Below are positions 1 to 29,313 of a stretch of 62,634 bases of DNA, one piece after another. Numbering within the stretch: the stretch's first letter is position 1; every line of letters begins with the position of its first letter. The translations under genes were made by a program, and so were the position numbers. Below the pieces are notes generated by a model. The model was not told the DNA's origin, ran no database searches, and saw only the letters and a list, made by a program, of their open reading frames with translations. The stretch is taken from positions 1-62,634 of the forward strand of contig JAURFT010000004.1 in the NCBI GenBank assembly GCA_030834185.1. The letters run 5' to 3'. Origin of the DNA: Candidatus Nanopelagicales bacterium. Lineage in GTDB: Bacteria; Actinomycetota; Actinomycetes; S36-B12; UBA5976.

Positions 1-357
1 GCAGGGAGTTTGTGCAGCAGGTAGCTGTACCTGTGTGATTGGGGTCGTTGTTTGAGTCGTAGTTGGAGTTGTTATAGGCGACGCGGCTGGTTTTGCAGCT
101 TTTTTGGCTTGTATTCGCCAAGTCAGTTTCTTACCACTTTTTTTACAAACAAAAGTTTTACCAGATTTAACAATTTTGATACTAGCTTTAGTGCAGACAG
201 CACCAGCCTTAACTTTAGTAGCAGGAGTTGCCATTGGCACTGCTAGCGAGAACAGCATCACAGCTGCAGTTCCGATCGAAAGCACTTTTGTAGTTTGGGG
301 TTCCAGGCCAATTGAGTCGGCGATAGCAACCCCATTTTGAACGCAACTCACGCACAT
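1..357 (-). CDS. Secreted protein, 5' part only (runs off the window): signal/TM segment, Cys-pair Lys-rich module, Thr/Pro-rich linker
   Basis: Absent from the ORF track because no stop lies in the window. Manual translation from ATG at 357: MCVSCVQNGVAIADSIGLEPQTTKVLSIGTAAVMLFSLAVPMATPATKVKAGAVCTKASIKIVKSGKTFVCKKSGKKLTWRIQAKKAAKPAASPITTPTTTQ...; GGGGG SD-like sequence upstream. Confidence 0.85.
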   Translation of the reverse strand, partial: MCVSCVQNGVAIADSIGLEPQTTKVLSIGTAAVMLFSLAVPMATPATKVKAGAVCTKASIKIVKSGKTFVCKKSGKKLTWRIQAKKAAKPAASPITTPTTTQTTTPITQVQLPAAQTPC

Positions 358-459
358 ATCAATTACCCCCTATGGGCTAACTTCTGGCAACATCATCCGG
401 CTCAAAATCAGCTTAGTTGAAATCACCTAGTTGATACTAGTTTATAGAAACTGCTTTAA

Positions 460-1212
460 TCAATTATTTGGCTCAAGCTCAGGTTCACCCTTATTGGCAA
501 CAAATGTCCGCCAGATCATCAGGGAGATAATATAAATTGGTGCGATCAGCAATATTGGCTTTAAGACATCAGGTCCGGTTGGATACTCAAGCGAAAGCGC
601 TGTCATTGCTAGAAAATAGACTGCTGCCAAACTCAAAGTCAAAGGACGCAGGGTTTTTACTTTAATCAAGTGTGGAAATTTTAAATTCGTTAACTGCAAT
701 AGACAAATAACAATAGAGCTAATAATTACCCAGCTGCTGTTGATCTCAAGAATTAGCATTGTTGGTATGACCAAGTTCCATGAGGCTGGAAAGCCATTAA
801 ACCAAAAATCTTCAGTTTCTTGATCGCTACGTGCAAACCAAAGCGCGTAGGTGAAGAAAATAAGGGAAGCAATAACTATGTCCCAACCAGGTGGCAGCAT
901 CTGTAGCTCAATCATCAAAACTACCGGAACTACCACGCAAGTTGCATAATCAATTACTAAATCAAGGGTATGGCCATTAAGTTGTGGAGCATGGGTTTTA
1001 ACATCTAATTTTCTTGCAATTGGGCCATCAAATCCATCAAGCAGCTGACAGACAATTAACCAGATCAAACCTTCTCTGATTCGGCCATCCAAGATGGCAG
1101 CTAGCGCTAATAAGCCAGCAATTGCGCCCAACGCGGTAAAGGCATGCACGCTAAATCCAGCAACTACCAGTCTTCGCTCGGTTAATTTCATAATGTCGAA
1201 CAGTAGTGCCAA
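460..1212 (-). CDS. pcs: Phosphatidylcholine synthase-like CDP-alcohol phosphatidyltransferase
   Basis: CDP-alcohol motif DGFDGPIAR...G..LDLVID, N-terminal VHAFTA and FNGFPASWN typical of Pcs; multi-TM; true start may be the internal ATG (MKLTERR). Confidence 0.75.
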   Translation of the reverse strand: MALLFDIMKLTERRLVVAGFSVHAFTALGAIAGLLALAAILDGRIREGLIWLIVCQLLDGFDGPIARKLDVKTHAPQLNGHTLDLVIDYATCVVVPVVLMIELQMLPPGWDIVIASLIFFTYALWFARSDQETEDFWFNGFPASWNLVIPTMLILEINSSWVIISSIVICLLQLTNLKFPHLIKVKTLRPLTLSLAAVYFLAMTALSLEYPTGPDVLKPILLIAPIYIISLMIWRTFVANKGEPELEPNN

Positions 1213-1294
1213 TTGTTTAAGGCGATTTTTTAGATCAGGCAGAAGGATAGAGGCTAGAAAGTGCTTTATTTGTGTTGATATCTAAAAACTCTTG

Positions 1295-1552
1295 TTAGTT
1301 AAGCAGCGGACTGCACACTGACTCTGCTTCACCTTGAGCTGCCTCAGCTGGATCTCCCCCATTGGGGGTCATGCCATTAGTGAATGAGTCATCAACATAA
1401 TTTTTGACACAAGTTTCAAATTTACTCTGCGAGTTAGCAGGATCTGGGTTATTAGCTGAATTTGCACAACCCGATGTCAGTAACAAAGCCGATGCTGCCA
1501 GCAGCGCAATTTTTAATAAGCTGCCAAACCCGTGCTTCATAATTTCAATCAC
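1295..1552 (-). CDS. Small putative lipoprotein
   Basis: Signal peptide ending LLTSGC (lipobox), two further Cys. Confidence 0.65.
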   Translation of the reverse strand: MIEIMKHGFGSLLKIALLAASALLLTSGCANSANNPDPANSQSKFETCVKNYVDDSFTNGMTPNGGDPAEAAQGEAESVCSPLLN

Positions 1553-1799
1553 CTATTCGCTGTTGCTGCTCCTTGATGGGAACTAATTTACTGCCTACAG
1601 CCATAGTTGCACCAATTAATATCAAATTTTTAATACTGTCTTGACCCTCTAACCTGCAAGTTGGCCTTATTCATCCCTATCTTTAATATCTCTAACCAAA
1701 AATTTGAAGGATTTCCTCTAAAGACACTAGCTGCTAATAATCAGAACTGCAGATTCTGACATATTTAACTGATCACAGAAACTGCTGAATTTGATTTTG

Positions 1800-1886
1800 T
1801 TATAACCATAAATAAATACTGCCAAGAATGGTTAAAAAGGCAGTCACTAGAAATACATCCCAAAGTGGATCTCTTGGGGCCTTCAT
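1800..1886 (-). CDS. Putative 28-aa single-TM small protein (MKAPRDPLWDVFLVTAFLTILGSIYLWL)
   Basis: Manual translation; AGAGGGAG SD 6 nt upstream of ATG; one hydrophobic helix; below the ORF-track cutoff. Confidence 0.55.
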   Translation of the reverse strand: MKAPRDPLWDVFLVTAFLTILGSIYLWL

Positions 1887-1944
1887 GCTTCGCTCCCTCT
1901 TGCTCTAGGCGCTAAATTCTAAATCAGGTTTGCAAAATTGCATA

Positions 1945-2532
1945 TTACTTTGGCACCGGCGAATAGCCCAGCACCTTTAGCGCTCCTTGTTTATTAGCTT
2001 TCACTAATACCCCTTCGCCAGAATCTAGTGAAACCCCAGTAAGTGCTGCGACGTTAACAAAGTGTCCAACCATAACTAGCAAACCACTTTTTTGACGGTG
2101 TTTAATAATTCGCTGCTTGATCCTTGCGGTTTGAATGTTATTTACTGGATCGGCAACTTGAAACAGCGAATCCAGATTCTTATTTAATCTCACTTTACCC
2201 AAATCAAGCAGCTTTGCAGTTTCGTTAGCCCGGCACCATCTGCTGGATTCAACACGAAGCACTTTTACCTGCTGGCTCTTAAGCCAGCTACCAATTTCAG
2301 CTGCATCTTTTCGACCACTGGCAGAAAGATTTCGCTGGGTAGTGCAATCTCCTAATTTGAAATTTGCTGGATCTCCACCTCCTGGCGCATAGGCATGGCG
2401 CATAAGAAGAACATAGCCTTTTGGATTGCCGCTTTGTAGTTTCTCCCAAACCTCCAACTCGTTGGCAGAAGTTGTAGTTGGTGATAGCGCAACTGAAAGC
2501 GCTGTAAGCAGGGTTAGGACTAGCTTGCGCAT
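1945..2532 (-). CDS. Secreted histidine phosphatase (phosphoglycerate mutase-like) family protein
   Basis: LLMRHA catalytic motif, SSRWCRANETA, LVMVGH; signal peptide. Confidence 0.85.
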   Translation of the reverse strand: MRKLVLTLLTALSVALSPTTTSANELEVWEKLQSGNPKGYVLLMRHAYAPGGGDPANFKLGDCTTQRNLSASGRKDAAEIGSWLKSQQVKVLRVESSRWCRANETAKLLDLGKVRLNKNLDSLFQVADPVNNIQTARIKQRIIKHRQKSGLLVMVGHFVNVAALTGVSLDSGEGVLVKANKQGALKVLGYSPVPK

Positions 2533-2773
2533 TTACTCCCCCTACTAGCTATGTTGGTAACGGAACTGTAATAGCGAAATTTGAAATCTGCATCAGCACT
2601 TTAAAGGGGTTTAAATCTGAAGTCACCATTAACATCAAGCAAACCAATTTCAGGGAACTCAGCCTTCCTGCCCAAAGCGGTTGCCTAAATCCCTCAACAG
2701 AATATTTCATGGTACTCAATGAACGCAAATGAGTTATCAGTTAATTGGAAGCTCGGACACTGGTGATTCTTTA

Positions 2774-4066
2774 CTAAAGGTCAATAACGCTATATGGTTT
2801 TGATTTGTTACGAGAATGCGTATCTAGGCTAATCAAAATGACTACAATCGAAACTAAAATTACAGATACTCCCCCAAGCATTAATGTTTCTTGTGGTCCA
2901 AAAAGATCAGCAAATAAACCTACCGCCGGCCCACCAATAGCCATACTGCCGCTAAACACAACTGTGTAGATGCCAAGAATTTTGCCTCGAATTGCATATG
3001 GCGTGTGATGTTGGATAAGCGAGTTTGCAGCGATTGTTGTGAGCAGCGCAAATAATCCAGAAAGCCCCAGCATCGCGGCATAACTCACAAGTGTTGGCGA
3101 GGCTCCTGCTCCCAATTGCCACACTCCAAACAACAGCGCAGTGGCAGCAAGTTTAACAACTGGCACACTGGAGTTTCTGTGTGCTGAAATCAATCCACCA
3201 AATAGTGCACCAATTGCAGTAGTTGAACTCAGTAAGCCGTAACCGGCAGCTCCTAGTCCAAAGATATTTACTGCAACTAATGCAGTTGTAATTTGAAAGT
3301 TAAGTCCAAAATATGCCAGCGTAGCAACGATGAACATTGCTTTAACAATAGCTTTGTCAGCCCAGATAAATTTTAAAGTCGCAAAGAAATTAACATCATC
3401 TTTAGCTACCTCATGAGTTGTATGCAAACTACCATTTCGAGCACTTAAAATCAGTACAGCAAAAAACGCGTAGGCCAATGAGCTAGCAAATAATGACGCC
3501 GGCACTCCTAATACACTAACCGTAATACCCGCTATGGCTGGTCCAATAATTCGGGCCAGATTGAAATTCACCGAATTCAAACTCACCGCATTTGATACAT
3601 TTTGTTCACCAACTAAATCTGACATTAGTGAATGACGAATAGGCATATCAATTGCCGAAAATATTCCCACAACCAGAGCAAAGGTATACACAATCCAAAC
3701 CTTTTGATTCTCGGTGAAAACTATTGCAGCCAAAGTCAAGCCACTTAGTGAAATTACAGCAGAGCAGATTGCCAATATCTTCTTTTTGTTATATCTGTCT
3801 CCAAGGCTTCCGCCATAGAAGCTAAAGAAAATTGCAGGTGCAAACTGCAAGCCGGTGATAATGCCCAGCGCAACTCCGCTGCCCGTTAACTCAAGAATTA
3901 ACCAATCTTGGGCAATGCGATGCATCCAGGTGCCAAGATTCATCACAAAAGTACCAGTTGCATATTTGCGATACTGTCGAAAATCCAAAGACACAAAGGT
4001 TCGCTTTGAAGCAGTTTTTATCGATACTCTTTCAGAGGCCCGATTAGCACTTCGCTTAATTTGCAT
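2774..4066 (-). CDS. MFS transporter (MFS_3/DHA3-like)
   Basis: About 12 TM; GTWMHRIAQDWLILELTGS, GSLGDRYNKKK motif A; paralogue of 48776..50041. Confidence 0.9.
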   Translation of the reverse strand: MQIKRSANRASERVSIKTASKRTFVSLDFRQYRKYATGTFVMNLGTWMHRIAQDWLILELTGSGVALGIITGLQFAPAIFFSFYGGSLGDRYNKKKILAICSAVISLSGLTLAAIVFTENQKVWIVYTFALVVGIFSAIDMPIRHSLMSDLVGEQNVSNAVSLNSVNFNLARIIGPAIAGITVSVLGVPASLFASSLAYAFFAVLILSARNGSLHTTHEVAKDDVNFFATLKFIWADKAIVKAMFIVATLAYFGLNFQITTALVAVNIFGLGAAGYGLLSSTTAIGALFGGLISAHRNSSVPVVKLAATALLFGVWQLGAGASPTLVSYAAMLGLSGLFALLTTIAANSLIQHHTPYAIRGKILGIYTVVFSGSMAIGGPAVGLFADLFGPQETLMLGGVSVILVSIVVILISLDTHSRNKSKPYSVIDL

Positions 4067-4084
4067 TAAATTTTCAGTCAGAGA

Positions 4085-4888
4085 TTACTTGTTGTAATCC
4101 CTGACCAGTTCAGCCTTGAGGTCAGTTGTCCAACCACGTTGGAAGTAGTAGGAACTTACGATTTCGGTTGGCTGAAAGGCTTCTAGCTCCTCATTGCTGC
4201 CATCTAGGAAATTAACAAAACCATCACCTTTCCAGGCATTAATCGTGGTGGCATTGCCCAGGTTTAGTCCAAATAAATGCTTGCTATCTGGTACATCAGG
4301 AGATGGCGATGGCAGGTATCGATATGTGTAGATACGGTGGCCGTACGACGGAATACCATCATCTGGCAATTTCTCAGTTAGCGTGATTCCCATATCAACA
4401 ATTCTGGTACCAAAGCGATCTACTTGACCACGAAGTCGGGTACCAACTCCAAGCTTTGGCAATCCTGGGTTTGCTGGCTGCAGTTTGGTCTTAAATACCT
4501 GAGCTTGTTTTTTTGCAAAACCCATGTAATGACCAAATACCACTGACCATTCTTCGGAGACCCAAATAAATGCACTGAATCGTCCTGGCACGTTGTCGTA
4601 CTTAACGTAAAAGCCAACTAGGCCCTCGTTGTATTGAGTGCGTTGTGGTTCGTCAAATTCTTGACCTGGATGTGATTCGCTGACTTTCACCATATCGGCA
4701 ACATATACATAGCCTAAACAATCATCTGTTAATGATAAGCCTTCTGGCAAGTAAGGGGTGACAACTTTTGGATCAACGCGGAAGTTAACTTGAATTGCAT
4801 CTGCACTAATGTGGTGTGGCGGGTTTTCAACTAGTGAAGCTTTGCCATTTGGTGATACTGGATTTCCAAAACCGATTGGACCAACCAT
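4085..4888 (-). CDS. Acetoacetate decarboxylase (ADC)-like family protein
   Basis: QYNEGLV segment, GHYMGFAKK Schiff-base Lys region, YRYLPSP, size about 270 aa. Confidence 0.75.
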   Translation of the reverse strand: MVGPIGFGNPVSPNGKASLVENPPHHISADAIQVNFRVDPKVVTPYLPEGLSLTDDCLGYVYVADMVKVSESHPGQEFDEPQRTQYNEGLVGFYVKYDNVPGRFSAFIWVSEEWSVVFGHYMGFAKKQAQVFKTKLQPANPGLPKLGVGTRLRGQVDRFGTRIVDMGITLTEKLPDDGIPSYGHRIYTYRYLPSPSPDVPDSKHLFGLNLGNATTINAWKGDGFVNFLDGSNEELEAFQPTEIVSSYYFQRGWTTDLKAELVRDYNK

Positions 4889-4926
4889 GCTGAAAGCTCC
4901 TTTTCATAAGTACAAAAAAAATGATT

Positions 4927-4942
4927 TGTGACTTGGGTCACA
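4927..4942. promoter_or_regulatory. CRP/GlxR-family binding site
   Basis: TGTGA-CTTGGG-TCACA, perfect TGTGA-N6-TCACA, in a divergent intergenic region. Confidence 0.7.
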
Positions 4943-4964
4943 ACCTTTAAAACCCTGCGCTTTT

Positions 4965-4994
4965 AGTATAGGCTTCCACGAAGTTCGAGGTCAA
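4965..4994 (-). promoter_or_regulatory. Housekeeping-sigma promoter for the ADC-MFS operon
   Basis: Minus strand TTGACC-N18-TATACT. Confidence 0.55.
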
Positions 4995-5045
4995 GAGTAT
5001 TTAATCTGTTATCGACAAACCAGAACCAACTCTGAAGGGTTTGAA

Positions 5046-6068
5046 ATGAATATTGACACGCATTCACACTATTGGCCAAAAAGTTTTCTTCAAGCCATGC
5101 ACTCTGGAAAGGATTTTTTTGGCTGGAAGCCAGAAAAAGTTGGCGGCAAATTAGCAATCTCACTTGGTGAAACCACACTCACATTTCCAGTGCCTGAGAC
5201 TGATCTAGACGATTTAGATACAAGATACGAAACTCGAAATGCTTATCAACCCATTTCAATGGAAGCTCTTCAAATTGTTGGTTTTCTTTGGTGCCAACAT
5301 TTAGATGAGACAGATGCAGCAAAATACACATCTCTTGTTAACGATGAGCTCAGCGCAGTCCAAGCAAAGCGACCAGATCGCTACCGCGGCTTAGGGCTTG
5401 TGCCAATTCAAAGTGTGGAACTAGCAGAGCGAGAAATTAAGCGGTTGAAAAATGAATTAGGAATTACTTCACTAGCAATGCCAACTTCATATCGGGATCA
5501 AAATTCCGATGAAGGCAATCTACTAAAAATCATTGAAATTGCAGCAAAAGAAGATATGTCAATGTCATTTCATGCAACTTACTTAAATCCTGTTGGCAAC
5601 GATCGGTATCCAAGGTATTACTTCATGAATAGCTTTGGAGCTCCAGCTGAAACATCACTTTCTTTAATGTCACTTATTTATTCTGGCTTTTTTGATCGCT
5701 TCCCAGAAGCTCGAGTTCAATTCATGCAAGGTGGTGGCTGCGTGCCATACAGCGTGATGCGGTTTACGCAACGTTACGAAGAACGTGAAGACTGCCGCGT
5801 AATGGCAGAACCGCCACATAAGTATTTAAATAAAATCTATTTTGACTGCCTAACCCATGATGATCTATCACTGCGCTTGCTGATTAATCGTGCTGGAATT
5901 GACAAAATTATGATTGGCACTGACTATCCATTTAAGAGCGATCATCCAGGTGGATCATCAAATTGGATTCGCTCTGGAGTGTTAGAGCCAGACGAAATCG
6001 AGCAAGTTGCTTATAAAAATGCAGCTAGATTCCTAAAACTACCAAAAGATCTTCTTCCTGCCTCATGA
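5046..6068 (+). CDS. Amidohydrolase_2 family protein (ACMSD-like decarboxylase/hydratase)
   Basis: DTHSH, SFHAT, MQGGG (His replaced by Gln), IYFDCL, GTDYPF. Confidence 0.9.
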   Translation: MNIDTHSHYWPKSFLQAMHSGKDFFGWKPEKVGGKLAISLGETTLTFPVPETDLDDLDTRYETRNAYQPISMEALQIVGFLWCQHLDETDAAKYTSLVNDELSAVQAKRPDRYRGLGLVPIQSVELAEREIKRLKNELGITSLAMPTSYRDQNSDEGNLLKIIEIAAKEDMSMSFHATYLNPVGNDRYPRYYFMNSFGAPAETSLSLMSLIYSGFFDRFPEARVQFMQGGGCVPYSVMRFTQRYEEREDCRVMAEPPHKYLNKIYFDCLTHDDLSLRLLINRAGIDKIMIGTDYPFKSDHPGGSSNWIRSGVLEPDEIEQVAYKNAARFLKLPKDLLPAS

Positions 6069-7294: not shown

Positions 7295-7303
7295 GAGCCG
7301 AAC

Positions 7304-8656: not shown

Positions 8657-8682
8657 GTAAAAGCCTAATTAAGGACCTAAAA

Positions 8683-9708: not shown

Positions 9709-9736
9709 TCTGTCAAGAAATAATCAAATATATTTT

Positions 9737-10552
9737 TTATCGAGTTGCCAAGAACCGACCCAGATCTTTTTCAGGATCCAGCACTGCACTTAGTAATTTC
9801 TTTGTGTATTCCTGCTGTGGATTGCCAAACAATGCTTCGACTGGCCCCTGTTCTACGACTTTTCCTGACTCCATCACCACAATGTCATCAGAGATAAAGG
9901 CAACCGTGCCCAAGTCATGTCCAATAAACAGATAAGTGAGTTGAAATTTTGCTTGTAGTTCTTTTAGCAGATTCAAAATCTGAGCCTGAATTGATAGATC
10001 TAGTGACGAAATTGGTTCATCTAAGATGATGAATTCAGGTTGTAGTGCAAGGGCTCGAGCAATGCTCACTCGCTGTGCCTGGCCTCCAGAAAGCTGATGT
10101 GGATAACGCATGGCGTAACTTGGCTCTAAGCCAACCATGACTAGTAATTCTTCAACTCGAGCTGACCGCTCCTCTTTACTACCAACTGCATGCACTACTA
10201 ATGGTTCGGAAATGGACTTCAAAACCGTCATTTTTGGGTTAAGTGATGAAAACGGATCTTGGAAGACAGTTTGCACTCGTCTACGGAAGGCCTTAAGTGA
10301 AGCACCACTTAATCCTGTTACGTCCTGACCATCAAACATAACACTGCCACTAGTAGGGGCTAACAATTTGGCCAAAATGGAGGCAACTGTGGATTTACCA
10401 GAACCCGACTCTCCAACTACACCAAGCGCTTTACCCTTTTTGATTTCAAAATCCACATGGTCAACAGCTCGAAGATTTACGCGCGACCCACGCTTTCCAA
10501 TCTTGTAGTCTTTAACTAAGTCTGTAACTTGAATTAGTGGTGCAGTTCCCAT
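9737..10552 (-). CDS. oppF: Opp/Dpp-type ABC transporter ATP-binding subunit
   Basis: GESGSGKS, FQDPFSSLNP, LSGGQAQR, ILDEP. Confidence 0.93.
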   Translation of the reverse strand: MGTAPLIQVTDLVKDYKIGKRGSRVNLRAVDHVDFEIKKGKALGVVGESGSGKSTVASILAKLLAPTSGSVMFDGQDVTGLSGASLKAFRRRVQTVFQDPFSSLNPKMTVLKSISEPLVVHAVGSKEERSARVEELLVMVGLEPSYAMRYPHQLSGGQAQRVSIARALALQPEFIILDEPISSLDLSIQAQILNLLKELQAKFQLTYLFIGHDLGTVAFISDDIVVMESGKVVEQGPVEALFGNPQQEYTKKLLSAVLDPEKDLGRFLATR

Positions 10553-11550
10553 CAGGCACCTTCCGCTGGGTTATGACATGAGAAGATGTGATTTACACTT
10601 TGCTTCGTTGGCTCAAGCCTTGGCACATCTGTTTTACATTTTTCAATTGCTCTTGTACATCTGGGGTGGAATGCACAACCCGATGGAATAGTGGCCAAAG
10701 AAGGTGGTGTGCCTGAAATAGTGGTCAATAGTTCTGCTTTGCTAGCACCGATTCGTGGCATGGAGGAAAGAAGTGCCTGAGTGTAAGGATGTTTTGGTGA
10801 TCGAAGCACTTCCTGAGCAGTGCCAGTTTCTACAATTCTGCCCGCATACATAATTGCAATTCGATCTGCAATTGCTGCTGCCACTCCAATATTGTGAGTG
10901 ATTAAAACAACTGCCATATCACGCTGATCACGGAGCCGTTGAATCAGCTCCAGCACAGCCACTTGGACTGAGGCATCAAGTGCAGTCGTTGGTTCATCAG
11001 CAATTAAGAGTTTAGGCTCAAGTGCAATTGCCATGGCAATCATCACACGTTGCCGTTGACCGCCTGATAGTTGATGTGGAAACTGGTTCGCGCGGCGTTC
11101 TGGATCTGGAATCTGCACTGAATCAAGCAATGAAACTGCTTGATTCCATGCTTCATCCTTGGACATGCCCCGGTGGACCTGAAAAATCTCAGCTATTTGT
11201 GCACCCACCTTGAAGCAAGGGTCAAGTGAAGTTAGCGGATCTTGAAAAATGACGCCAATTTTTTCCGCACGCAACTTTCGCAGCGATTCTTGATCTGCAC
11301 CAAGGATCTCATTTCCTTCAAACTCAATTGATCCAGTAATCCGAGCAGTGCTAGGAAGGAGGCCTGAAACGGCATGCACCGAAACGGATTTACCAGCACC
11401 AGACTCCCCTAATATAACGAAAGTTTCACCAGGAGCCACAGACCAGTTGGTAGTGTGAATGGCTTGCAACGGACCACTAGCAGTGTTAAAAACAACATCC
11501 AAATTTTTGATCGATACGACTGTGTCAACTTTTTGCTCAGCAAGATTCAC
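10552..11550 (-). CDS. oppD: Opp/Dpp-type ABC transporter ATP-binding subunit
   Basis: GESGAGKS, LSGGQRQR, IADEPTTALD, HPYT, C-terminal GCAFHPRC. Confidence 0.93.
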   Translation of the reverse strand: MNLAEQKVDTVVSIKNLDVVFNTASGPLQAIHTTNWSVAPGETFVILGESGAGKSVSVHAVSGLLPSTARITGSIEFEGNEILGADQESLRKLRAEKIGVIFQDPLTSLDPCFKVGAQIAEIFQVHRGMSKDEAWNQAVSLLDSVQIPDPERRANQFPHQLSGGQRQRVMIAMAIALEPKLLIADEPTTALDASVQVAVLELIQRLRDQRDMAVVLITHNIGVAAAIADRIAIMYAGRIVETGTAQEVLRSPKHPYTQALLSSMPRIGASKAELLTTISGTPPSLATIPSGCAFHPRCTRAIEKCKTDVPRLEPTKQSVNHIFSCHNPAEGA

Positions 11551-11551
11551 G

Positions 11552-12457
11552 TTAGATTTCCTTTGTTTGTGGATCTAATCGATCGCTGAGCCAATCACCA
11601 AACACATTCACGCAAAGAACTGTGAGCATAATTGCAACGGCAGGAAAAGTTGCAATCCACCAAGCAGTCTCTAAGTAATTTCGCCCCTCGCTAAGCATGG
11701 ATCCCCAAGTTGGTGTCGAGAGCGGCACTCCGAGGCCAAGGTAACTCATGGAACTCTCCGCAATGATGGTCTGAGCCACCACGAAGGTCCAAACTACCAT
11801 CATGGCACCGGTGATATTTGGCACGATGTGTTGAAATACGAGTCCGAATCCAGAGCGACCTGAAGAAATCGCTGCCCGATAAAATTCGCTCTCCTTTACG
11901 CTTAAAGACTTTGCATGCGCAAGTCGTGCAAATGGAGTCCAGAGCCAAATTACTAAGGTGAAGATGATTGTGTTAACTCCTGCGCCAACAATAGATACAA
12001 TTGCAATAGCCACAATCAAAAATGGAAATGCCGTTTGGATATCAACAACTCGAAGTATCACTGCCTCTTGCCAGCCTCGAAAATATGCGGCAATAAGCCC
12101 TAAAAATCCACCAATTAACATAGCTAAAGTTGCTGTTGCAAGACCTACTGCAAACGAGACCTTCCCTCCATGCACCAGCCGACTAAATACATCGCGACCT
12201 AACTGGTCGGTGCCGAGCAAGTAACTAACTCCTTCGCCAATTTCGAAAGGCGGCACTAGTCGATAGAGTAGATCTTGGTACGTAGGATCCTGAGGAACCC
12301 AAAGATTTGCCCCAAAACTCAATAGGGCGGCAGCACCAAGGAACGCTAAACTAATGGGGCCCGCTTGCCTGAACCATTTTTTGCGTCCAGGGCCTTTAGG
12401 CAGAGCATCAGACTTTGCTCCAACAAAAAAACTAAACGCTGACATTCGCTGACTCAT
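11552..12457 (-). CDS. oppC: Opp/Dpp-type ABC permease
   Basis: LGTDQLGRDVFSRL, ESSMSYLGLG, PTWGSML. Confidence 0.93.
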   Translation of the reverse strand: MSQRMSAFSFFVGAKSDALPKGPGRKKWFRQAGPISLAFLGAAALLSFGANLWVPQDPTYQDLLYRLVPPFEIGEGVSYLLGTDQLGRDVFSRLVHGGKVSFAVGLATATLAMLIGGFLGLIAAYFRGWQEAVILRVVDIQTAFPFLIVAIAIVSIVGAGVNTIIFTLVIWLWTPFARLAHAKSLSVKESEFYRAAISSGRSGFGLVFQHIVPNITGAMMVVWTFVVAQTIIAESSMSYLGLGVPLSTPTWGSMLSEGRNYLETAWWIATFPAVAIMLTVLCVNVFGDWLSDRLDPQTKEI

Positions 12458-12459
12458 AG

Positions 12460-13383
12460 CTAGTTAACCTTTGCCCTTAGCCTTGGGTCTACAAATTGAT
12501 ACAACAGATCTACGATCAAGTTAACTAGAACCACCATTACTGCAACTGTGAAAACCCCTGCTTCTAGCATTGGGTAATCTCGAGCCTTAACAGCGTTTAC
12601 CATCAGAGATCCAATTCCTGGCCAGGCAAACACAGCCTCAATAATCACCGCGCCACCTACAAACTTACCGAGGTCAATTCCAATTAGCGAAAGCATTGGC
12701 ACTGAGATATTGCGAAGGATATGCTTAAAACGAATTCTTCTATTGTTAAACCCGAGTGATTTTCCAGTCCGAACATAGCCACGGTTCATTTCCTCAATAA
12801 AGTATGCCCGTACCAAGCGGGTGTGCCTGGCCATCAATACAGCAGAAAGTGCAATAGCTGGCATGATGATGCTTGTTGGCTGCTCATTTCCAAAGCTTGG
12901 CAACCACTGCAGCCAAACTGAGAAAACCAAAATCATAAAGATTCCGATAATAAATGGTGGAATCGATTGACCCAACATCGACATCGACAAAATAAATCGG
13001 CCAGATGCATTCCGGCGCTTCACTGCTGCGAAGATACCCGCAGGAATGGCAACGAGCATGGCCAATGCAAACGCTACAAAGCTTAAATAAAGAGTTGATG
13101 GCAGGGCTTCCAAAATTAGTGGCATTGATGGCTGCAAATATATATATGAGTCGCCAAAGTTCAGTGTTGCTAATTTAATAAGGAAGGCAAAATATTGCTC
13201 AAAAATCGAGCGATTTAAGCCCAGTGACTCTCGAATGATTTCAATGTCTTCGGTAGTTGCTTCACTTCCAGCAACTGCCAAAGCCGGATCGCCACTTACC
13301 CTAACCAAGAAGAATAAAAGAGTGGAGATCCCGAGCACTACAAGTATTAGTTGTAGTGCTCGGGATCCTAGGACTCGCAGCAT
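12460..13383 (-). CDS. oppB: Opp/Dpp-type ABC permease
   Basis: GDPA...LGLNR, KHILRN, IEAVFAWPGIG, RDYP, DPRLR. Confidence 0.93.
   Translation of the reverse strand: MLRVLGSRALQLILVVLGISTLLFFLVRVSGDPALAVAGSEATTEDIEIIRESLGLNRSIFEQYFAFLIKLATLNFGDSYIYLQPSMPLILEALPSTLYLSFVAFALAMLVAIPAGIFAAVKRRNASGRFILSMSMLGQSIPPFIIGIFMILVFSVWLQWLPSFGNEQPTSIIMPAIALSAVLMARHTRLVRAYFIEEMNRGYVRTGKSLGFNNRRIRFKHILRNISVPMLSLIGIDLGKFVGGAVIIEAVFAWPGIGSLMVNAVKARDYPMLEAGVFTVAVMVVLVNLIVDLLYQFVDPRLRAKVN
13327..13367 (-). repeat. Perfect 17-bp inverted repeat inside the 5' end of oppB
   Basis: GATCCCGAGCACTACAA-gtattag-TTGTAGTGCTCGGGATC. Confidence 0.9.
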
Positions 13384-13394
13384 CTAGTTCTTTC

Positions 13395-15080
13395 TCAATT
13401 ACCGATGCTTACAAGGTCAATATTGCCACCAGCATCAATAAAGAATCGCTTGGTTGCCTTTTTGCCTGCCCAAATATCTGGAGTATGGATACCCCACAGG
13501 ATTGGTGCATTTTCCTTCAGAATCTTGCCAGCCTCACAGAAAGCTCGAGTTCGAGCAGGGCTTCTGGTTGATAGTGAAGATGCTTTAGCAATCAACTCGT
13601 CATATCGGGGATCTGAATGGCCAATGTTGTGAGTCGAGTAATTTGTGGTGTAGCGCGCCATCTGCACACCAGCATCTAAGTCAGGACTTGATGACATTCG
13701 CCAAGCGAATAAGTCCTTACGTGGAATAGCTCCACGAAGATAGTAAACATCCAGGAACTTAGAAAACTCCAGAACCTCTACTTCAACCTTGTCCACTGCG
13801 TCCAAGCGCTCGATCATTTGAGCGATTGCCTGTGCCATCAATACGTCATTAGTTATGTAGGCAGTGGATGTTTGGAATGTTAGTTTCAGATTGGATACGC
13901 CAGCCTGCTTCATGAGGTCATTGGCTTTCTTCATATCATATGGATAGGCCGTAACTTCGCGGCAATATCCAGTCAGATTGCTCGGCACAAGTTGTGCTTG
14001 TGCAATAGAGCCTAAACCACTATTAACGCGATCAATCAATGCCTGCTTATCGACGGCAAAATTCAGCGCTTGCCTTACACGCTTGTCAGCGAGTGGGCCC
14101 GATTTTGCCATGATACTCATGTGATAGGTCGCTGGCTCAATGATTGAATTCACAGCAAAGCTTCTACGCAATGAGGCAATGTCGTCAGTTGGAACTTTGT
14201 TCACAACATCTAAGCCACCTGACCTAAGTCCAGACATACGTGAGGCATCTTCAGGAATCACTTTGAAGACAATCTTGGTCGCGGCAGGAACTACACGAAG
14301 TGATGATGGATTTGGCTCAAGCACTAGCTCCACGTTTGGTGTAAAGCTGGTTGCAACAAATGGGCCAGTACCTACTGGTGCTCGCCAGAATGCTGCAGCA
14401 CCTTTGGCCGCAAATTCCTTTGGCGGCAAAATAGGTACAGTACCTAGAGCACGAGGCAATAGATATCTTGGTGCAGACGTAGTGATTTTTACCTTGTACT
14501 CTGACATAACTTCAATTCGAGTTATTTCAGAAATCTTTGCTCGCAAGCCTGCTCTGTTGGCTGGATTCAAAACCCACTCTAACGAGGCTTTAACTGCAGT
14601 GGCATTGACTGGTTCGCCATTAGGAAAGGTCTTACCTTGAATTAAATTGAATACCCAGGTTTTTGAATTGCCTTCCTGTGACCAAGAGTCAGCAACATTT
14701 GGCTTAACAATTGGCGTTCCGGTAGAGAGATCAACTCGGGTTAGCGCTGAGTAAATAGCACCCACGATAAATGAACGAGGTGGGGCACTAGCTGCATAAG
14801 CTTCCAGCGATGGCGGCAATGATCCGATACCAATGGTTACGGTTTTACCAGATCCACCTTTAAAGTACTTTTTCCAAACGCGCTTACCTTTTTTGGTAGC
14901 TTTGCAAATAAGAACAGTGTTGTTTACGTACTCTTGTTCTTTCAAATTGGTGCACTTAGCTCCTGCAACTGCAGTATTTGCTGAGGCACTGGTATTGAAA
15001 GCAGTTAAGACTGCGAAAGCCATAACAAAAGTTATGACAGCACTCACAGACTTTTTTGCAAATCCTGCTTTTGTTGCCAT
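13395..15080 (-). CDS. oppA: Family 5 (Opp/Dpp/Nik) solute-binding protein with extra N-terminal Cys-pair module and no lipobox
   Basis: FPNGEPVNATAVKAS, PVGTGPF, DKRVRQALNFAVD; signal ends TSASA. Confidence 0.92.
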   Translation of the reverse strand: MATKAGFAKKSVSAVITFVMAFAVLTAFNTSASANTAVAGAKCTNLKEQEYVNNTVLICKATKKGKRVWKKYFKGGSGKTVTIGIGSLPPSLEAYAASAPPRSFIVGAIYSALTRVDLSTGTPIVKPNVADSWSQEGNSKTWVFNLIQGKTFPNGEPVNATAVKASLEWVLNPANRAGLRAKISEITRIEVMSEYKVKITTSAPRYLLPRALGTVPILPPKEFAAKGAAAFWRAPVGTGPFVATSFTPNVELVLEPNPSSLRVVPAATKIVFKVIPEDASRMSGLRSGGLDVVNKVPTDDIASLRRSFAVNSIIEPATYHMSIMAKSGPLADKRVRQALNFAVDKQALIDRVNSGLGSIAQAQLVPSNLTGYCREVTAYPYDMKKANDLMKQAGVSNLKLTFQTSTAYITNDVLMAQAIAQMIERLDAVDKVEVEVLEFSKFLDVYYLRGAIPRKDLFAWRMSSSPDLDAGVQMARYTTNYSTHNIGHSDPRYDELIAKASSLSTRSPARTRAFCEAGKILKENAPILWGIHTPDIWAGKKATKRFFIDAGGNIDLVSIGN

Positions 15081-15186: not shown

Positions 15187-15209
15187 TGACAATGTACTGG
15201 CAGAATTTT

Positions 15210-16166: not shown

Positions 16167-16185
16167 AATTGTGGCCTTGTCCGGT

Positions 16186-16785: not shown

Positions 16786-16894
16786 TGGAGAATTATCGCG
16801 ATATATCCGAGGCTTGTCCAGCCTATTGATTTCAATATGATTCTACCAACATGAGCAGCAACTGCTTTGTTTAGATTACTTAGGCCGAGAGTGG

Positions 16895-18283: not shown

Positions 18284-18313
18284 TTAACTATCTCCTCATT
18301 CCCCCCAACACGA

Positions 18314-19180: not shown

Positions 19181-19183
19181 GGC

Positions 19184-20902: not shown

Positions 20903-20953
20903 AATAATCCCTATCTCTTAATTTTTAGATGTTTAAGACTAACTTACTGAAAG

Positions 20954-22872: not shown

Positions 22873-23036
22873 AAGACCTCTTCCTATCTAGTTAATAGTG
22901 ACAACCCTATGGCATAATCGAGGTCTAGTAAATAGTTTGCAGAAATGTTAATGATCAATGAGTTATTGGTTTTTAAACAGCTAGCCGCAAACATTCCGAA
23001 AAGTTTTTTGATGCATTACCTGAGAGGCAGCTAGTT

Positions 23037-24074: not shown

Positions 24075-25693
24075 ATGTGACTACTTTAAATTATCCAATA
24101 AACACCACCCCCCGAGTTTTTTTGCCAGGTTCAAGTGATGTGACAGAAATTGGAGCAGCAATAACTCAGCTCTCAAATCAAGTCCATGAGCTCTCCTTGA
24201 TTATTGATGGTCGAAAGGTCAAGGGTGGTGGCGAACAGGTAAAGGTATTTTTGCCACATCGAAAAGATCAGCAATACGCTGAAATTGCGCTACCAACTAA
24301 AGCTCAGATCAACAGCGCTCTATCGAACACGCTAAAAGTCCGAGAAGCTTGGTCGAATACCAGCATGGCTGAGCGCGTCACCATATTTAACAAAATAGCA
24401 GATCTAATCGAATTTAAATACAAAAATTATCTTGTTGCAGCAACTATGGTGGGACAATCAAAAACTGTATTTCAAGGTGAGATCGATGCTGCTGCAGGAC
24501 TAATTGACTCAATTCGATTCAATACCAAATTTGCAGCTGAAATCGAGAAAATGCAACCACCTGAGAGTGAGATCACAAATATAACTTTAGATTATCGACC
24601 ACTAGAGGGATTTGTTTATTCAATAACACCTTTTAACTTCACCACAACAAGTGCAATTCTTTCTACTGCCCCAGCATTGATGGGAAATGTGGTGATTTGG
24701 AAGCCTTCGATCACTGCCATGCTACCAGCACATATCTTGATGGACATTTATCATGAAGCGGGTTTACCAGCAGGGGTTATCAATTTAGTTCCTGGTTACG
24801 GACCTGAAGTTAGTGAAGTGCTGTTAGAGGATGAGAATCTAGCTGGTATTTATTTCACTGGATCAACGAAAGTTTTTCGGCAACTTTGGAAAGACGTTGG
24901 CGACAATTTAGCTAAGTACCGAAACTTTCCCAGACTGGTTGGCGAAACTGGAGGTAAAGGTTTTGTGGTAGCACACCCAACTGCAGATCGCGACAAATTG
25001 GTATCGGCATTGATACGAAGTGCATTCGAATATCAAGGGCAAAAATGCTCTGCTTGTTCAAGAGCTTACATAGCCCAATCGGTCTGGAACGATATCTCTG
25101 AGCAACTAATTTCCACAATTGCCAACCTAAAATTTGGCCAGATCGAAGATTTTAAAAACTTTATGGGTGCGGTAATTGATCAAGCGTCATTTAACCGCTT
25201 ACACACTGTACTAAAAGAAATTGCTGGTGATGGTGATATCAAGGTCTTAGCTGGCGGTAAGACAAGCGATGAAGTTGGTTACTTTGTCGAACCAACATTA
25301 TTACTCTCCAATAACTTAGGCCACCGAATATTTTCAGATGAATACTTTGGCCCTATCTTGGCAGTTCATGTATTCCCTGATGAACAATATGAATCAATCC
25401 TTAACGCGATTGATTCATCTTCGCCATATGCTTTAACTGGTGCGATATTTGCTACCGATGAAGCTGCAATTAGATTTTCATTAGATAAATTACGCAATGC
25501 AGCTGGAAGCATGAATGTAAATGACAAACCAACTGGAGCTGTCATGGGAAAGCATCCGTTTGGTGGATCTAGAGCATCAGGCACAAACGACAAAGCAGGA
25601 TCCTTGCAAGGCTTGCTACGTTGGACAAGTCCAAGAGTTGTTCGTACCGTAACTAACTCAACAACTGAAGTTTTGCATCCCCATCAAACTTAG
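24071..25693 (+). CDS. pruA: L-glutamate gamma-semialdehyde (P5C) dehydrogenase-like aldehyde dehydrogenase
   Basis: YRPLEGF, PFNF, FTGST, GETGGK, FEYQGQKCSACSR, NDKPTGAV, PFGGSRASGTNDKAG. Confidence 0.85.
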   Translation: MNVTTLNYPINTTPRVFLPGSSDVTEIGAAITQLSNQVHELSLIIDGRKVKGGGEQVKVFLPHRKDQQYAEIALPTKAQINSALSNTLKVREAWSNTSMAERVTIFNKIADLIEFKYKNYLVAATMVGQSKTVFQGEIDAAAGLIDSIRFNTKFAAEIEKMQPPESEITNITLDYRPLEGFVYSITPFNFTTTSAILSTAPALMGNVVIWKPSITAMLPAHILMDIYHEAGLPAGVINLVPGYGPEVSEVLLEDENLAGIYFTGSTKVFRQLWKDVGDNLAKYRNFPRLVGETGGKGFVVAHPTADRDKLVSALIRSAFEYQGQKCSACSRAYIAQSVWNDISEQLISTIANLKFGQIEDFKNFMGAVIDQASFNRLHTVLKEIAGDGDIKVLAGGKTSDEVGYFVEPTLLLSNNLGHRIFSDEYFGPILAVHVFPDEQYESILNAIDSSSPYALTGAIFATDEAAIRFSLDKLRNAAGSMNVNDKPTGAVMGKHPFGGSRASGTNDKAGSLQGLLRWTSPRVVRTVTNSTTEVLHPHQT

Positions 25694-25699
25694 GGTGGA

Positions 25700-26443
25700 T
25701 TAATGGATTGTGACGCCACCATCAATAAATATGGTCTGGCCAGTCACCATGCCCGCAGCATCGCTGAGCAGAAACAAAACTGAATCTGCCACATCCTGCT
25801 GGGTAGCCATGCGACCAAGCGGAATCGAGGATATCTTGTCTTTCATGTATACGTCATTTGTTAAAAGTGGTGCGGTCATATCACTTGGCACAATTGTTGG
25901 CCCAACTGCATTAACTCGAATGCCATCTGCTGCCCACTCAAAAGCTAACACCTTAGCCATAAACATTACGCCTGCTTTACTGACCGAATAACCAACCGTG
26001 TTATGCACAGCAGAATGGCCGCTGGTTGATCCAATATTAACAATTGCACCTTTAGTTTTTTTAAGTTCAGCATAAACAGCCTGACTCATAAAAAAAGTGC
26101 CGTTTAAATTAATATCAATTACATCGGTAAAATCTTTTTCGGCAACTTCACTCGCTTTTGCTCGGCGCACAATGCCAGCATTATTTACTAAGTAATCAAT
26201 TCGGCCATGCTCAGAAATTACACTTTGTACTAAATCCAAACATGACTGCCTGGATCTCACATCAACAAAGTGCTTACTATTTGGCGCAGCTAGCTGGTTC
26301 TCCCATGATTGCGCTGGCAACAAATCAGCAGCAGCCACAACAGCGCCTCGGGCAATTAGTGAATTGGAGATGGTTGCACCAATACCGCGAGCGGCACCGG
26401 TAACAATTGCAACTTTACCTTCAAAATCTTGACTTAGACTCAA
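25700..26443 (-). CDS. Short-chain dehydrogenase/reductase
   Basis: TGAARGIG, NNAG, YSVSK, VTGQTIFIDGG. Confidence 0.93.
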   Translation of the reverse strand: MSLSQDFEGKVAIVTGAARGIGATISNSLIARGAVVAAADLLPAQSWENQLAAPNSKHFVDVRSRQSCLDLVQSVISEHGRIDYLVNNAGIVRRAKASEVAEKDFTDVIDINLNGTFFMSQAVYAELKKTKGAIVNIGSTSGHSAVHNTVGYSVSKAGVMFMAKVLAFEWAADGIRVNAVGPTIVPSDMTAPLLTNDVYMKDKISSIPLGRMATQQDVADSVLFLLSDAAGMVTGQTIFIDGGVTIH

Positions 26444-26445
26444 TC

Positions 26446-27228
26446 TCAGGTACCAATAATATTGCTGCTATCAGCCCAAAATACATAGCGCTTTTGCAGC
26501 GCCTTGATGATGATATGCGCGAAAATTCCCATTAGCGAGAGTACAATTAAAATCGCAAACATAGTTGGAGTTTCAAAGTTGTACTGCGATACCAAAACCA
26601 TATTGCCAAGCCCCGCCTGTGATCCTAGGAACTCACCTACCACAGCACCCAATATGCTTAGCAAAATTCCAACATCTAGACCAGCAAAGAAAAACGGCAT
26701 CGCACTTGGAACTTGCACTTTTTTAAAGATCTGAAATCTCGAAGCACCAAAAACTCGCAGCATCCGAATATGGTCGCTGTCAGCTGACTTTAGACCTTCA
26801 ATGATGTTAATTAAGATTGGGAAAAATGCAATTATCGCAGCCATTACAACTTTACTAGTTTGGCCAAAACCAAACCAGATAATAAAAATTGGGGCTAGCG
26901 CAATTTTAGGAATTGCCTGGAAACCAACTAGGTATGGCAGCAAAGTTTTTTCTACAATTTTTATCTGTGAAATAAAAGTTCCAGCTATTACAGCGAAAAT
27001 AGTTGCAGCCACAAAGCCGTAAAGGGCTTCTTGAGTTGTCACCCAAACATTGGTCCAGAAAAATGAAGTTTGCGATTGATAAATTAAGGCTTCACCAATC
27101 CGTGATGGCGTAGGTAAAATTGTTTCTTTAACCTCAAGGATATTGATTAAATTCTCCCAGGCCAAAATCACAACAATAAACAAGCCAGGGACCAAAATGA
27201 ATTCAGATCGTACCTTTAGAAACTTCAT
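26446..27228 (-). CDS. NitT/TauT-family ABC permease
   Basis: QAIPKIALAPIFIIWFGFG, GAVVGEF. Confidence 0.92.
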   Translation of the reverse strand: MKFLKVRSEFILVPGLFIVVILAWENLINILEVKETILPTPSRIGEALIYQSQTSFFWTNVWVTTQEALYGFVAATIFAVIAGTFISQIKIVEKTLLPYLVGFQAIPKIALAPIFIIWFGFGQTSKVVMAAIIAFFPILINIIEGLKSADSDHIRMLRVFGASRFQIFKKVQVPSAMPFFFAGLDVGILLSILGAVVGEFLGSQAGLGNMVLVSQYNFETPTMFAILIVLSLMGIFAHIIIKALQKRYVFWADSSNIIGT

Positions 27229-27238
27229 TTATCTCCCC

Positions 27239-28051
27239 TTATTCGATCACGTTAGCAGCACTGAAATAATGACGAATTCGCTGCACATAATGTCCTGAAG
27301 CATCACTTGTCATCATCTCAAGTGTTCTTGGTCTAGGAAGCTCGATATTAATAATTTCAGCAATTCGACCAGGTCTTGGACTCATCACAATTACGCGGTC
27401 AGATAAAAACACCGCTTCGGTAATTGAGTGAGTCACCAGCGCAATGGTCTGATTACTTTCTTTCCAAATTCTAAGCAGCTCTAGATTCATGTATTCACGA
27501 GTCATCGCATCTAGCGCACCAAATGGCTCATCCATCAGCAGAACTGAAGGTGAGTGAATAAGCGCTCGGCAGATGCCAGCGCGCTGCTGCATGCCGCCGC
27601 TGAGTTCATTTGGATATTTATTTTCAAAGCCATCCAGCCCTACTAGTTTTAATAGGTCTGCTGCAATAGCTTTGTATTCTGTTTTATTTCGTTTTTGAAC
27701 TTCTATTGGAATCATTAAGTTTTCTAAAATTGTCCGCCATGGGAGCAAAGTTGGTGCTTGAAAAACCATACCAATCTCTGACAGTGGTTTAGTTACCTCA
27801 TGGCCTGAAACCGCGGCGCTGCCTTCGGTTTTTGAAATAAGGCCAGCGAGAATATTTAACAGCGTGGTTTTACCGCAGCCTGAAGGTCCGACGATGGAGA
27901 TGAACTCACCGCGGCGCACATTGAAATTTATATCTGCCAAGGCATGGGTGGAGTCACCCGTTCGCGTGCGATAGACCTTGTGTAGCCCTTTTACGCTAAT
28001 CCAGGACGCCTCGTTAGAGGCGTCCTGGATGGCGTTGTTCTGTTGGGTCAT
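27239..28051 (-). CDS. NitT/TauT-family ABC ATP-binding protein
   Basis: GPSGCGKT, LLPWRT, LSGGMQQR, LMDEPFGALDAMTR. Confidence 0.93.
   Translation of the reverse strand: MTQQNNAIQDASNEASWISVKGLHKVYRTRTGDSTHALADINFNVRRGEFISIVGPSGCGKTTLLNILAGLISKTEGSAAVSGHEVTKPLSEIGMVFQAPTLLPWRTILENLMIPIEVQKRNKTEYKAIAADLLKLVGLDGFENKYPNELSGGMQQRAGICRALIHSPSVLLMDEPFGALDAMTREYMNLELLRIWKESNQTIALVTHSITEAVFLSDRVIVMSPRPGRIAEIINIELPRPRTLEMMTSDASGHYVQRIRHYFSAANVIE
27999..28030 (-). repeat. Perfect 14-bp inverted repeat inside the 5' end of the ABC ATPase gene
   Basis: ATCCAGGACGCCTC-gtta-GAGGCGTCCTGGAT. Confidence 0.9.
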
Positions 28052-28083
28052 ATTTAATTTTCCCTACAAGATTTCAACAATTG

Positions 28084-29313
28084 TTACTTACCTGCCTTGT
28101 CCGCAGCGGCCACAATTGGCTTACGATCAAAGTCATTGGCTCGGCCAATTCCCCGATTGTCGAAATGTTTAGCTCGAGAGATCGCTGCAACTGTGGTGCC
28201 AGCAGCACGGGTGTATGCCTGGCTCTTGCTCCAATCGCTTAGAGGTATGTCTCCAAGCATCTTCCATGACGCTGGAGTTCCAGTTGTTGGTGTGGCAGAC
28301 GCTAGCCATACCTTCAGCTGATAAGCACCCAACGCAAGTCTGGATTCAAGTGGCTGTCCAGCTAATGCAGCTGGGATCTCGGTGAAGCCCAATCGAGCTC
28401 CAGAGGTTGGGTTCTGACTTGAATAAGTTAGACCCTTAAATGCTGCTCGCAAGAAGCGCTCAAATACCTCTGGCTCTTTAGCATAGCGATCAGCATTTAC
28501 TACCCATGACAGTGAACGGACGCCGGTTAGCGCAGCTGGGTTGGGTAGGTAGTTGTACTTAGTTCCGGCAAATTCAGTTCCGGCATAGGCTGCTGTGTAA
28601 AATGCAATTGCATCAACATCGCCGCGCTCTAGCGCAACTGTTGCTGGACCAATTGAGCCACCTACTGCAACAAGCTTGACATCAGTTTCTTTCATGCCGT
28701 TACCAGCTAGCCAAGCTTTGGTGTACGGATAGCTTCCAGAACCAAAACCAATAATTCCGATGGTCTTGCCCTTCAGGTCACTTGGGCTCTTGATGTTCTT
28801 CTTTGGATCTGTTGCCATCAACCATGGGAAGTTTTGCACTAGGCCACCGATGATTTTGATGTTTGCACCGCGCTGAATGCCTTGCAGTGCGGAACCTAGA
28901 TCACCTCCAGCGATATCAATTCGACCCTGACCAACTAGGTTTATGGCGTCAATTGATCCACCAGTTGTAACGGCAGAGACATTTAACTTCTCCGACTTGA
29001 AATAACCAAGTTGCTTTGGAACGGCATAAACTGCAAATTCTTCCTTAGGTGCAAAAGCGGCTGAGGCGGCACCAAAAACAAGTGTTGCAGCTTTGTAGCC
29101 TTTCCACTTTGCTTTTCCTGCCTTGCCTTTGCAAGACAATGTGTTTCCGTTGGCTGCAACTCCAATTGCACCAACCTTTGCACATTTCTGACCAGCTCTA
29201 GCAGTTGCAGCTTGTGATGCTGGTGCAAGTGCGACTAGAAGTGAACCTGCTAGCGCAGCACTAAGTACCGCTGAATAAATCTTTTTAACCCGTGGGTTGG
29301 TTAATCCAAACAT
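28084..29313 (-). CDS. SsuA/NMT1-type solute-binding protein with N-terminal Cys-pair module and no lipobox
   Basis: LGYFKSEKL, GGSIDAINLV, DLKGKTIG, GDVDA; start moved from 29487 to the ATG after AAGGAG (MFGLTNPRVKK...PASQA). Confidence 0.88.
   Translation of the reverse strand: MFGLTNPRVKKIYSAVLSAALAGSLLVALAPASQAATARAGQKCAKVGAIGVAANGNTLSCKGKAGKAKWKGYKAATLVFGAASAAFAPKEEFAVYAVPKQLGYFKSEKLNVSAVTTGGSIDAINLVGQGRIDIAGGDLGSALQGIQRGANIKIIGGLVQNFPWLMATDPKKNIKSPSDLKGKTIGIIGFGSGSYPYTKAWLAGNGMKETDVKLVAVGGSIGPATVALERGDVDAIAFYTAAYAGTEFAGTKYNYLPNPAALTGVRSLSWVVNADRYAKEPEVFERFLRAAFKGLTYSSQNPTSGARLGFTEIPAALAGQPLESRLALGAYQLKVWLASATPTTGTPASWKMLGDIPLSDWSKSQAYTRAAGTTVAAISRAKHFDNRGIGRANDFDRKPIVAAADKAGK

Follow-up and report, generated by a model that had tools for sequence, protein, structure and literature searches.

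The window analysed here is the entire contig C88 (62,634 nucleotides) of a Candidatus Nanopelagicales bacterium, from an assembly of 1.34 Mb in 142 contigs with 44.6% G+C and an estimated completeness of 86.6%. Three of its genes encode exported proteins, namely a secreted protein (protein 1), an OppA-type solute-binding protein and an SsuA-type solute-binding protein, that carry a short, Lys-rich stretch with a pair of Cys residues behind the signal peptide (Table 1). These three stretches are copies of a real domain family of ~38 aa with the core G-x-x-C-x15-C-x8-W, hereafter the module. An earlier note on this DNA had reported the three stretches, and the minus-strand translation of the window matches its module sequences letter for letter. 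Its description of the genes had to be corrected, as all three lie on the minus strand and protein 1 is represented only by an N-terminal fragment. This fragment begins with a long n-region that contains Cys, followed by a hydrophobic segment, the module and a linker rich in Pro, Thr and Ala; in relatives, the full-length orthologues measure 400–505 aa and give weak zincin-peptidase-like matches. In the OppA-type protein, the signal peptide (residues ~1–34, ASA|NT) is followed by the module (39–69), a short Gly-rich joint and the binding-protein core. The open reading frame (ORF) of the SsuA-type protein spans 28084..29487 (−), with a likely start at M58 (29316), judged from orthologues of 410 aa; its signal peptide ends in ASQA and the module is joined directly to the core. 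Each binding-protein gene is the head of a complete ATP-binding cassette (ABC) importer operon, so the two binding proteins must remain near the membrane.

Table 1. Module-bearing genes, module copies and associated importer genes in the window.
Feature	Position	Strand	Description
Carrier 1, secreted protein	1..357	−	N-terminal fragment, 119 aa, cut by contig end
Module copy 1, AGAVC-x15-CKKSGKKLTW	118..207	−	Strong family member; domain E 5.5e-13, independent profile
ABC importer genes 3′ of OppA-type gene	9737..13383	−	Two permeases (BPD_transp_1), two ATPases (ABC_tran, oligo_HPY)
Carrier 2, OppA/NikA-type (SBP_bac_5) solute-binding protein	13395..15080	−	561 aa; Pfam SBP_bac_5 1.5e-62, 212 bits
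Module copy 2, AGAKC-x15-CKATKKGKRVW	14874..14966	−	Divergent variant; domain E 2.8e-3
ABC ATPase (27239–28051) and permease (26446–27228), 3′ of SsuA-type gene	26446..28051	−	
Carrier 3, SsuA/NMT1-type solute-binding protein	28084..29316	−	410 aa; Pfam NMT1 4.8e-31, 109 bits
Module copy 3, AGQKC-x16-CKGKAGKAKW	29104..29196	−	Divergent variant; domain E 1.1e-2

A hidden Markov model of the three copies was scanned against the genome, which revealed two further copies in tandem paralogues on contig C91. In both paralogues, the signal peptide and the module are followed by an extended Pro/Thr linker and a region that weakly resembles Peptidase_MA_2. When a profile of five sequences was run on 1.84 billion cluster representatives, 519 proteins were retrieved at E ≤ 0.001, eight of them at E ≤ 1e-10; the statistics on position, spacing and Pfam partners given below refer to the best 150 of these 519 carriers. 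The G, the two Cys residues and the Trp are invariant across the 150, with C-x15-C in 161 and C-x8-W in 158 of 162 modules; the Cys spacing is rarely 16, and the Trp lies 8–9 residues after the second Cys. An independent profile was made from 167 modules of 150 database proteins, without any sequence from the window, and run on 12,685 six-frame ORFs. It retrieves the three window copies at the E values in Table 1 and both C91 copies (E 1.3e-18 and 2e-18), with no further match at E ≤ 1 among the 12,685 ORFs. The genome thus holds five module copies, of which the two on binding proteins are divergent members of the family. No Pfam, NCBIfam or PHROGs model covers the module or its position in carriers. 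A likeness to the KxYKxGKxW signal-peptide motif of Firmicutes was also considered and rejected, as NCBIfam gives no hit and the motif described here stands behind the signal peptide, not inside it. No description of the module was found in the literature covered, which excluded supplements and subscription journals, and the passages seen of PMC11039613 are silent on it. The family is lineage-restricted and apparently undescribed, whereas the role proposed below, non-covalent surface retention, is a familiar one.

The suggestion that the module is portable and sits behind signal peptides is borne out by the carriers. A hydrophobic 10-mer lies upstream of the module in 148 of the 150, and the first copy starts at residues 10–59, in 123 carriers at residues 20–29. 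Most carriers (136) have one copy, eleven have two and three have three. A 157-aa protein comprises a signal peptide and three module copies, and one C-terminal location was also found. Repetition and a C-terminal location would be expected of an autonomous binding domain, not of a sorting signal. Pro, Thr, Ser and Ala make up 48% of the 40 residues that follow the module, compared to 26% further on. Many unrelated C-terminal domains follow. Among the Pfam families listed for the 150 carriers, there are a few each of esterase or alpha-beta hydrolases and peptidases (MA, M9, M10, S9), as well as pullulanase-associated domains (PUD), PHB depolymerase-type esterases and beta-propellers. Carriers in relatives give GH16 and weak zincin matches. 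The complete 1.44-Mb genome G262 has 12 matches, and the ten carriers scanned in it include Lcl_C, Cyt-b5-like, SGNH domains and a weak M23 match, with six having no known family.

Signal peptides, cleavage sites and the absence of a lipobox were judged by eye and pattern. No lipobox is present at the first Cys of any copy in the window, as the earlier note had described for the two binding proteins; the preceding residues are G-A-V, G-A-K and G-Q-K, and AxA-type sites (ASA, SQA) lie upstream of the module in both binding proteins. A Lys or Arg residue falls between the h-region and the residues preceding the first Cys, and the lipoprotein pattern [LVI]-[ASTVI]-[GAS]-C is absent. True lipoproteins are encoded in the same window, at 41387..41881 (LLAGC), 56822..58489 (LISSC) and 1295..1552 (LTSGC). 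The further proposal, that the module takes over the position of the lipid anchor, was checked on homologues and is supported in both binding-protein families. For the OppA type, the Cys-pair module is present in all 11 homologues with an N-terminus at 67–96% identity. Of the next 13 homologues (38–45% identity), 12 have a lipobox, L-x-A-C-G/S, and the thirteenth is N-terminally truncated. In these lipoproteins, an acidic Gly/Ser/Asp/Glu linker meets the core exactly where the module of the window protein ends. For the SsuA type, 82 of 94 homologues have the Cys pair and the Trp, some with a shorter last loop; one of the module-bearing homologues is from Candidatus Planktophila sp. (60% identity). 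In some SsuA-type orthologues, V-G-A-A-C is the context of the first Cys. Five others have a lipobox, all at 41–46% identity and one from Streptosporangium. The remaining seven comprise five fragments, a protein of 30% identity and the long ORF of the window itself. Since the module is found in close homologues and a lipobox with a linker in the next tier, the module replaces "lipobox plus linker" in two unrelated families.

This replacement is not a general one. A survey of the genome with four Pfam models found 13 binding-protein ORFs. A lipobox is present in five, the module in two, an AxA-type signal with neither feature in five, and only an N-terminal hydrophobic segment in one. The statement that actinobacterial binding proteins are usually lipid-anchored therefore applies to only part of this set, and the module is not a general substitute for the lipid anchor. 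A search for sortases in the genome, which is 86.6% complete, found none. In a separate observation, another SBP_bac_5 protein of the same genome (contig C21, 13411–15030 (+)) has C-x10-C directly behind an AxA signal peptide, without a lipobox.

The modules have an unusual composition, with 20.9% Lys and 1.8% Asp plus Glu, compared to 5.9% and 10.9%, respectively, in the remainder of the same proteins. The long ORFs of the genome contain 4.5% Lys. The net charge of the 26-aa module core is +5.7 ± 1.5. Because the rest of the proteins and the long ORFs are poorer in Lys, the charge belongs to the module and is not a consequence of low G+C content. In the high-GC relatives G283, G037 and G239 (59–65% G+C; L080–L084), the same scaffold has a core whose net charge ranges from −1 to +5. 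The earlier description of the module as cationic is consequently accurate for this lineage and does not extend to the family as a whole.

The structure of a 42-aa module was predicted with AlphaFold2 from a 53-row alignment (pLDDT, the predicted local distance difference test, of 82.9). The model is a three-stranded antiparallel β-sheet with strands at residues 17–20, 23–30 and 33–39, and with a bridge at residue 10 beside the first Cys. A prediction of the whole OppA-type protein without an alignment was uninformative (pLDDT 35). In the module model, the second Cys residue lies in the middle strand, a geometry that is compatible with a disulfide bond; in this predicted fold, a Cys–Cys disulfide probably ties the N-terminal segment to the middle strand. 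Also compatible with a disulfide bond are the invariance of both Cys residues and the even Cys count of 63 of the 73 carriers of at least 250 aa. The genome encodes VKOR (contig C11, 5513–5902) and a DsbA-like thioredoxin, which likewise fit a disulfide. The ORF of the latter, a Thioredoxin_4 protein, directly adjoins lgt on contig C52 of the same assembly (3284–4018 (−), 4117–4593 (−)). The best Z in a VIA-align comparison of the model with 48,161 chains was 2.9, and the matches were only small disulfide-rich peptides and β-hairpins of a generic kind.

The module family is expanded in two small-genome freshwater actinobacterial lineages. Among relatives, 13 of 41 genomes have a match: 12 of 24 in the family of the genome under study, besides that genome (G000) itself, and none of 16 in other families of its order. 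One genome of the same genus has a protein that is identical to KGA09628.1 of "actinobacterium acAMD-5". When the class was sampled evenly, matches were found in 18 of 301 genomes with one profile (A2) and in 27 of 401 with a broader one (A7). The A7 matches fall in the genome's own family (one of three, plus G000), family f7 (three of five), family f12 (one of three) and a single genus of another order, g59, with 21 genomes, all complete, of 1.3–1.5 Mb and with 1–12 matches each. Some large families, for example f11, f20 and f25, have none (0/22 each), and a profile including the high-GC variants added no further families among the 401 genomes of the class. We infer that g59 is a genus of the Nanopelagicaceae and that the window comes from the AcAMD-5 group; a preprint treats these two as distinct GTDB families. 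The module genes of g59 often lie side by side as paralogues in tandem arrays, at comparable places on the chromosome (454–466 kb in G131:C1, 412–420 kb in G293:C1, 415–428 kb in G277:C1 and 441–476 kb in G174:C1).

Some module-like sequences are filed as viral. Structural look-alikes in the ESM Atlas fall in clusters partly labelled viral, a tblastn search of GenBank phages gave no match to the module, and of two scans of IMG/VR one was empty and the other found 13 contigs filed as viral (L037–L049, locus G+C 32–45%). In the proteins on these contigs, the module lies between a signal peptide and a Pro/Thr linker; two of the eight scanned hit Reprolysin_3 and six have no Pfam family. A role in phage wall binding is unsupported, as none of the eight carries a lysin or tail-fibre family.

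We hold with moderate confidence that the module is a disulfide-stapled domain that would retain exported proteins non-covalently at the cell's own envelope. In the mechanism proposed, for which we infer signal-peptide cleavage, the disulfide and any binding, a carrier would be exported by the Sec pathway and cleaved at the AxA site of a type I signal peptide. The mini-domain would then fold, be stapled by the disulfide bond and stick to a component of the envelope, either the wall or the membrane's outer face. Exoenzymes would extend from it on their Pro/Thr linkers, while the binding proteins, almost directly joined to the module, would be held close to their permeases. As the joint in the binding proteins is short, docking at the outer membrane face or the innermost wall seems likelier than docking on a distal polymer. 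The Lys load suggests an anionic ligand in this lineage, such as phospholipid head groups, lipoglycans, teichoic-type polymers or peptidoglycan carboxylates. Given the conserved aromatic residues and a weak resemblance to family 5/12 carbohydrate-binding modules (CBM5/12), a glycan-binding face is also possible. Instead of the anionic wall polymer proposed in the earlier note, the module could just as well bind the membrane surface, the glycan of peptidoglycan or a substrate.

Several observations weigh against retention at the envelope. The charge is not the conserved feature of the family, since the high-GC relatives hold the scaffold without the Lys load, and a highly cationic segment immediately after a signal peptide would generally be expected to hamper Sec export. 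Foldseek gave no match in the Protein Data Bank (PDB) at E ≤ 0.001 (best E 0.92). Wall-binding Pfam models (LysM, SH3b, SPOR, CWB1/2, SLH, WxL, ChW, PG_binding) do not match any protein of the window or of C91 at E ≤ 1, and known wall-binding families are not among the families listed (25 of 32) for the 150 carriers. The five binding proteins with neither feature indicate that lipobox and module are both dispensable for binding proteins in this genome. Lipid anchoring is moreover available, as Lgt and LspA are encoded and a lipobox pattern picks out 41 candidates, counting false positives. In G239 (L084), the module follows a lipobox and a Ser/Thr/Pro linker and precedes an Ala/Lys/Asp repeat region, so it is not simply an alternative to the lipid anchor. 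Finally, the profile used in the search of 1.84 billion representatives (A1) contained signal-peptidase-site residues, which favours N-terminal copies.

That the three window stretches resemble each other by chance, or as an effect of low G+C composition, is scarcely credible. The modules are short and the general family profile gives the two binding-protein copies only the E values of 2.8e-3 and 1.1e-2, but this reading is already contradicted by the invariant spacing and G/C/C/W residues of 150 independent carriers, by the retention of the copies in orthologues of both binding proteins and by the restriction of the Lys enrichment to the module. The main rival, which we regard as unlikely, is that the module is a CBM-like domain, perhaps a shortened CBM5/12 relative, that targets enzymes to substrates or particles such as chitin or algal exopolymers instead of to the cell's own envelope. 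A small N-terminal module, a Pro/Thr linker and a hydrolase make up the classical CBM architecture of actinobacteria, and the carriers are built in this way. The 45-aa chitin-binding domain of Bacillus circulans chitinase A1 (PDB ID: 1ed7) is the top entry in two partly independent searches, Foldseek (E 0.92, template-modelling score 0.44) and a PDB sequence-profile search (E 0.32). It is not listed by VIA-align. An hhalign comparison of the module with 25 actinobacterial CBM_5_12 domains gave a probability of 60.5% over only 17 columns, those of the central hairpin G-x-x-V-x-Y-x-G-x-x-Y-x-C. None of these matches reaches significance, and each spans less than half of the domain. The Pfam model CBM_5_12 (PF02839) has no hit at E ≤ 1 in the five carriers of this genome and is not among the families listed (25 of 32) for the 150 carriers. 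The resemblance is a weak lead, not membership. The partners point in the same direction, being mostly peptidase- or esterase-like or of no known family, with few glycosidases, and particle binding would make no sense on two ABC binding proteins whose homologues have a lipid anchor at this site.

The module might instead have no anchoring role and serve as a cap for folding or stability, as a pro-region related to export or as the site where one particular partner protein docks. The conserved positions (the G, the two Cys residues, an aromatic residue before the second Cys and L-V-W) look structural, the charge varies between lineages, and five binding proteins of the genome do without any anchor-like feature. 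A mere cap is nonetheless difficult to reconcile with 12 carriers in a 1.4-Mb genome, tandem repeats and long flexible linkers, and the Lys content is extreme and module-specific; taken together, this makes a non-anchoring role improbable in our judgment. A covalent handle, in which an L,D-transpeptidase would link a module Lys or the new N-terminus to a peptidoglycan stem peptide, has a precedent in Braun's lipoprotein and in outer-membrane proteins of some proteobacteria. The module is located at the mature N-terminus, has many conserved Lys residues and replaces a covalent (lipid) anchor in the binding proteins. However, a simple acceptor site is at odds with the internal and C-terminal copies of the module and with the high-GC variants, which are poor in Lys, and we consider such attachment very unlikely.

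Non-covalent retention by the module, the reading preferred here, has counterparts among the wall-binding modules of monoderm bacteria, which include LysM, SH3b, SPOR, Cpl-7, WxL, CWB1, CWB2, SLH and ChW, as listed in one review (PMC5817068, Desvaux et al. 2018). Like these, the module is small, autonomous and extracytoplasmic, has many enzyme partners and flexible linkers, is sometimes repeated, and would provide surface retention without a covalent bond. Unlike these, it has no Pfam sequence match, is shorter (~38 aa) and depends on a Cys pair, is nearly always N-terminal and directly behind the signal peptide, and occurs in few actinobacterial lineages. It is similar in size to CBM_5_12 (PF02839; 1ed7) and weakly resembles its β-hairpin core, whereas it lacks the C-terminal half and Trp platform of CBM5/12, and its Cys pair and Lys residues are not features of that family. 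The same review refers to a suggestion that peptidoglycan is bound by a chitin-binding-like domain of pneumococcal LytB (PMC5817068). In comparison with lipoprotein anchoring by Lgt and LspA, the module occupies the same site between signal peptide and binding-protein core in two families and presumably serves the same retention near the membrane. It differs in the absence of a lipobox, in the second invariant Cys, the Trp and the upstream AxA site, and in that true lipoproteins are used in parallel. N-terminal placement on ABC binding proteins in place of a lipobox is unusual.

A broader interpretation is that the module represents a third general route by which monoderm bacteria retain binding proteins and exoenzymes without a lipid, a transmembrane segment or a sortase. 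It would be a cationic, disulfide-stapled domain that binds an envelope polymer and that arose or spread in the most abundant freshwater actinobacteria, repeatedly displacing lipoprotein anchors; we offer this as a tentative and rather doubtful extension of the data. Small-genome planktonic actinobacteria of the AcAMD-5 and Nanopelagicaceae types are among the most abundant freshwater bacteria and live on dilute substrates that they capture with binding proteins and surface enzymes. An unannotated module on up to 12 exported proteins per 1.4-Mb genome would thus point to a lineage-specific way to keep proteins cell-bound. As a handle, the module may be of use in predicting surface proteomes, in finding the envelope polymer bound and in the surface display or labelling of organisms that are difficult to cultivate, and it is a candidate for a new Pfam or InterPro entry.

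Two further features were observed at the edge of the window. The protein-1 family has a conserved N-region of ~25 aa, starting M-C-x-x-C-x-Q-x-G, ahead of the hydrophobic segment (220–357 (−) in the window). This region, which is unusually long and Cys-bearing for the n-region of a signal peptide, is also found in L004, L005, L007, L009, L019 and P0129, and its conservation with substitutions indicates that it is coding. In addition, a gene for a CDP-alcohol phosphatidyltransferase (460–1212 (−)) adjoins that of the truncated module protein.

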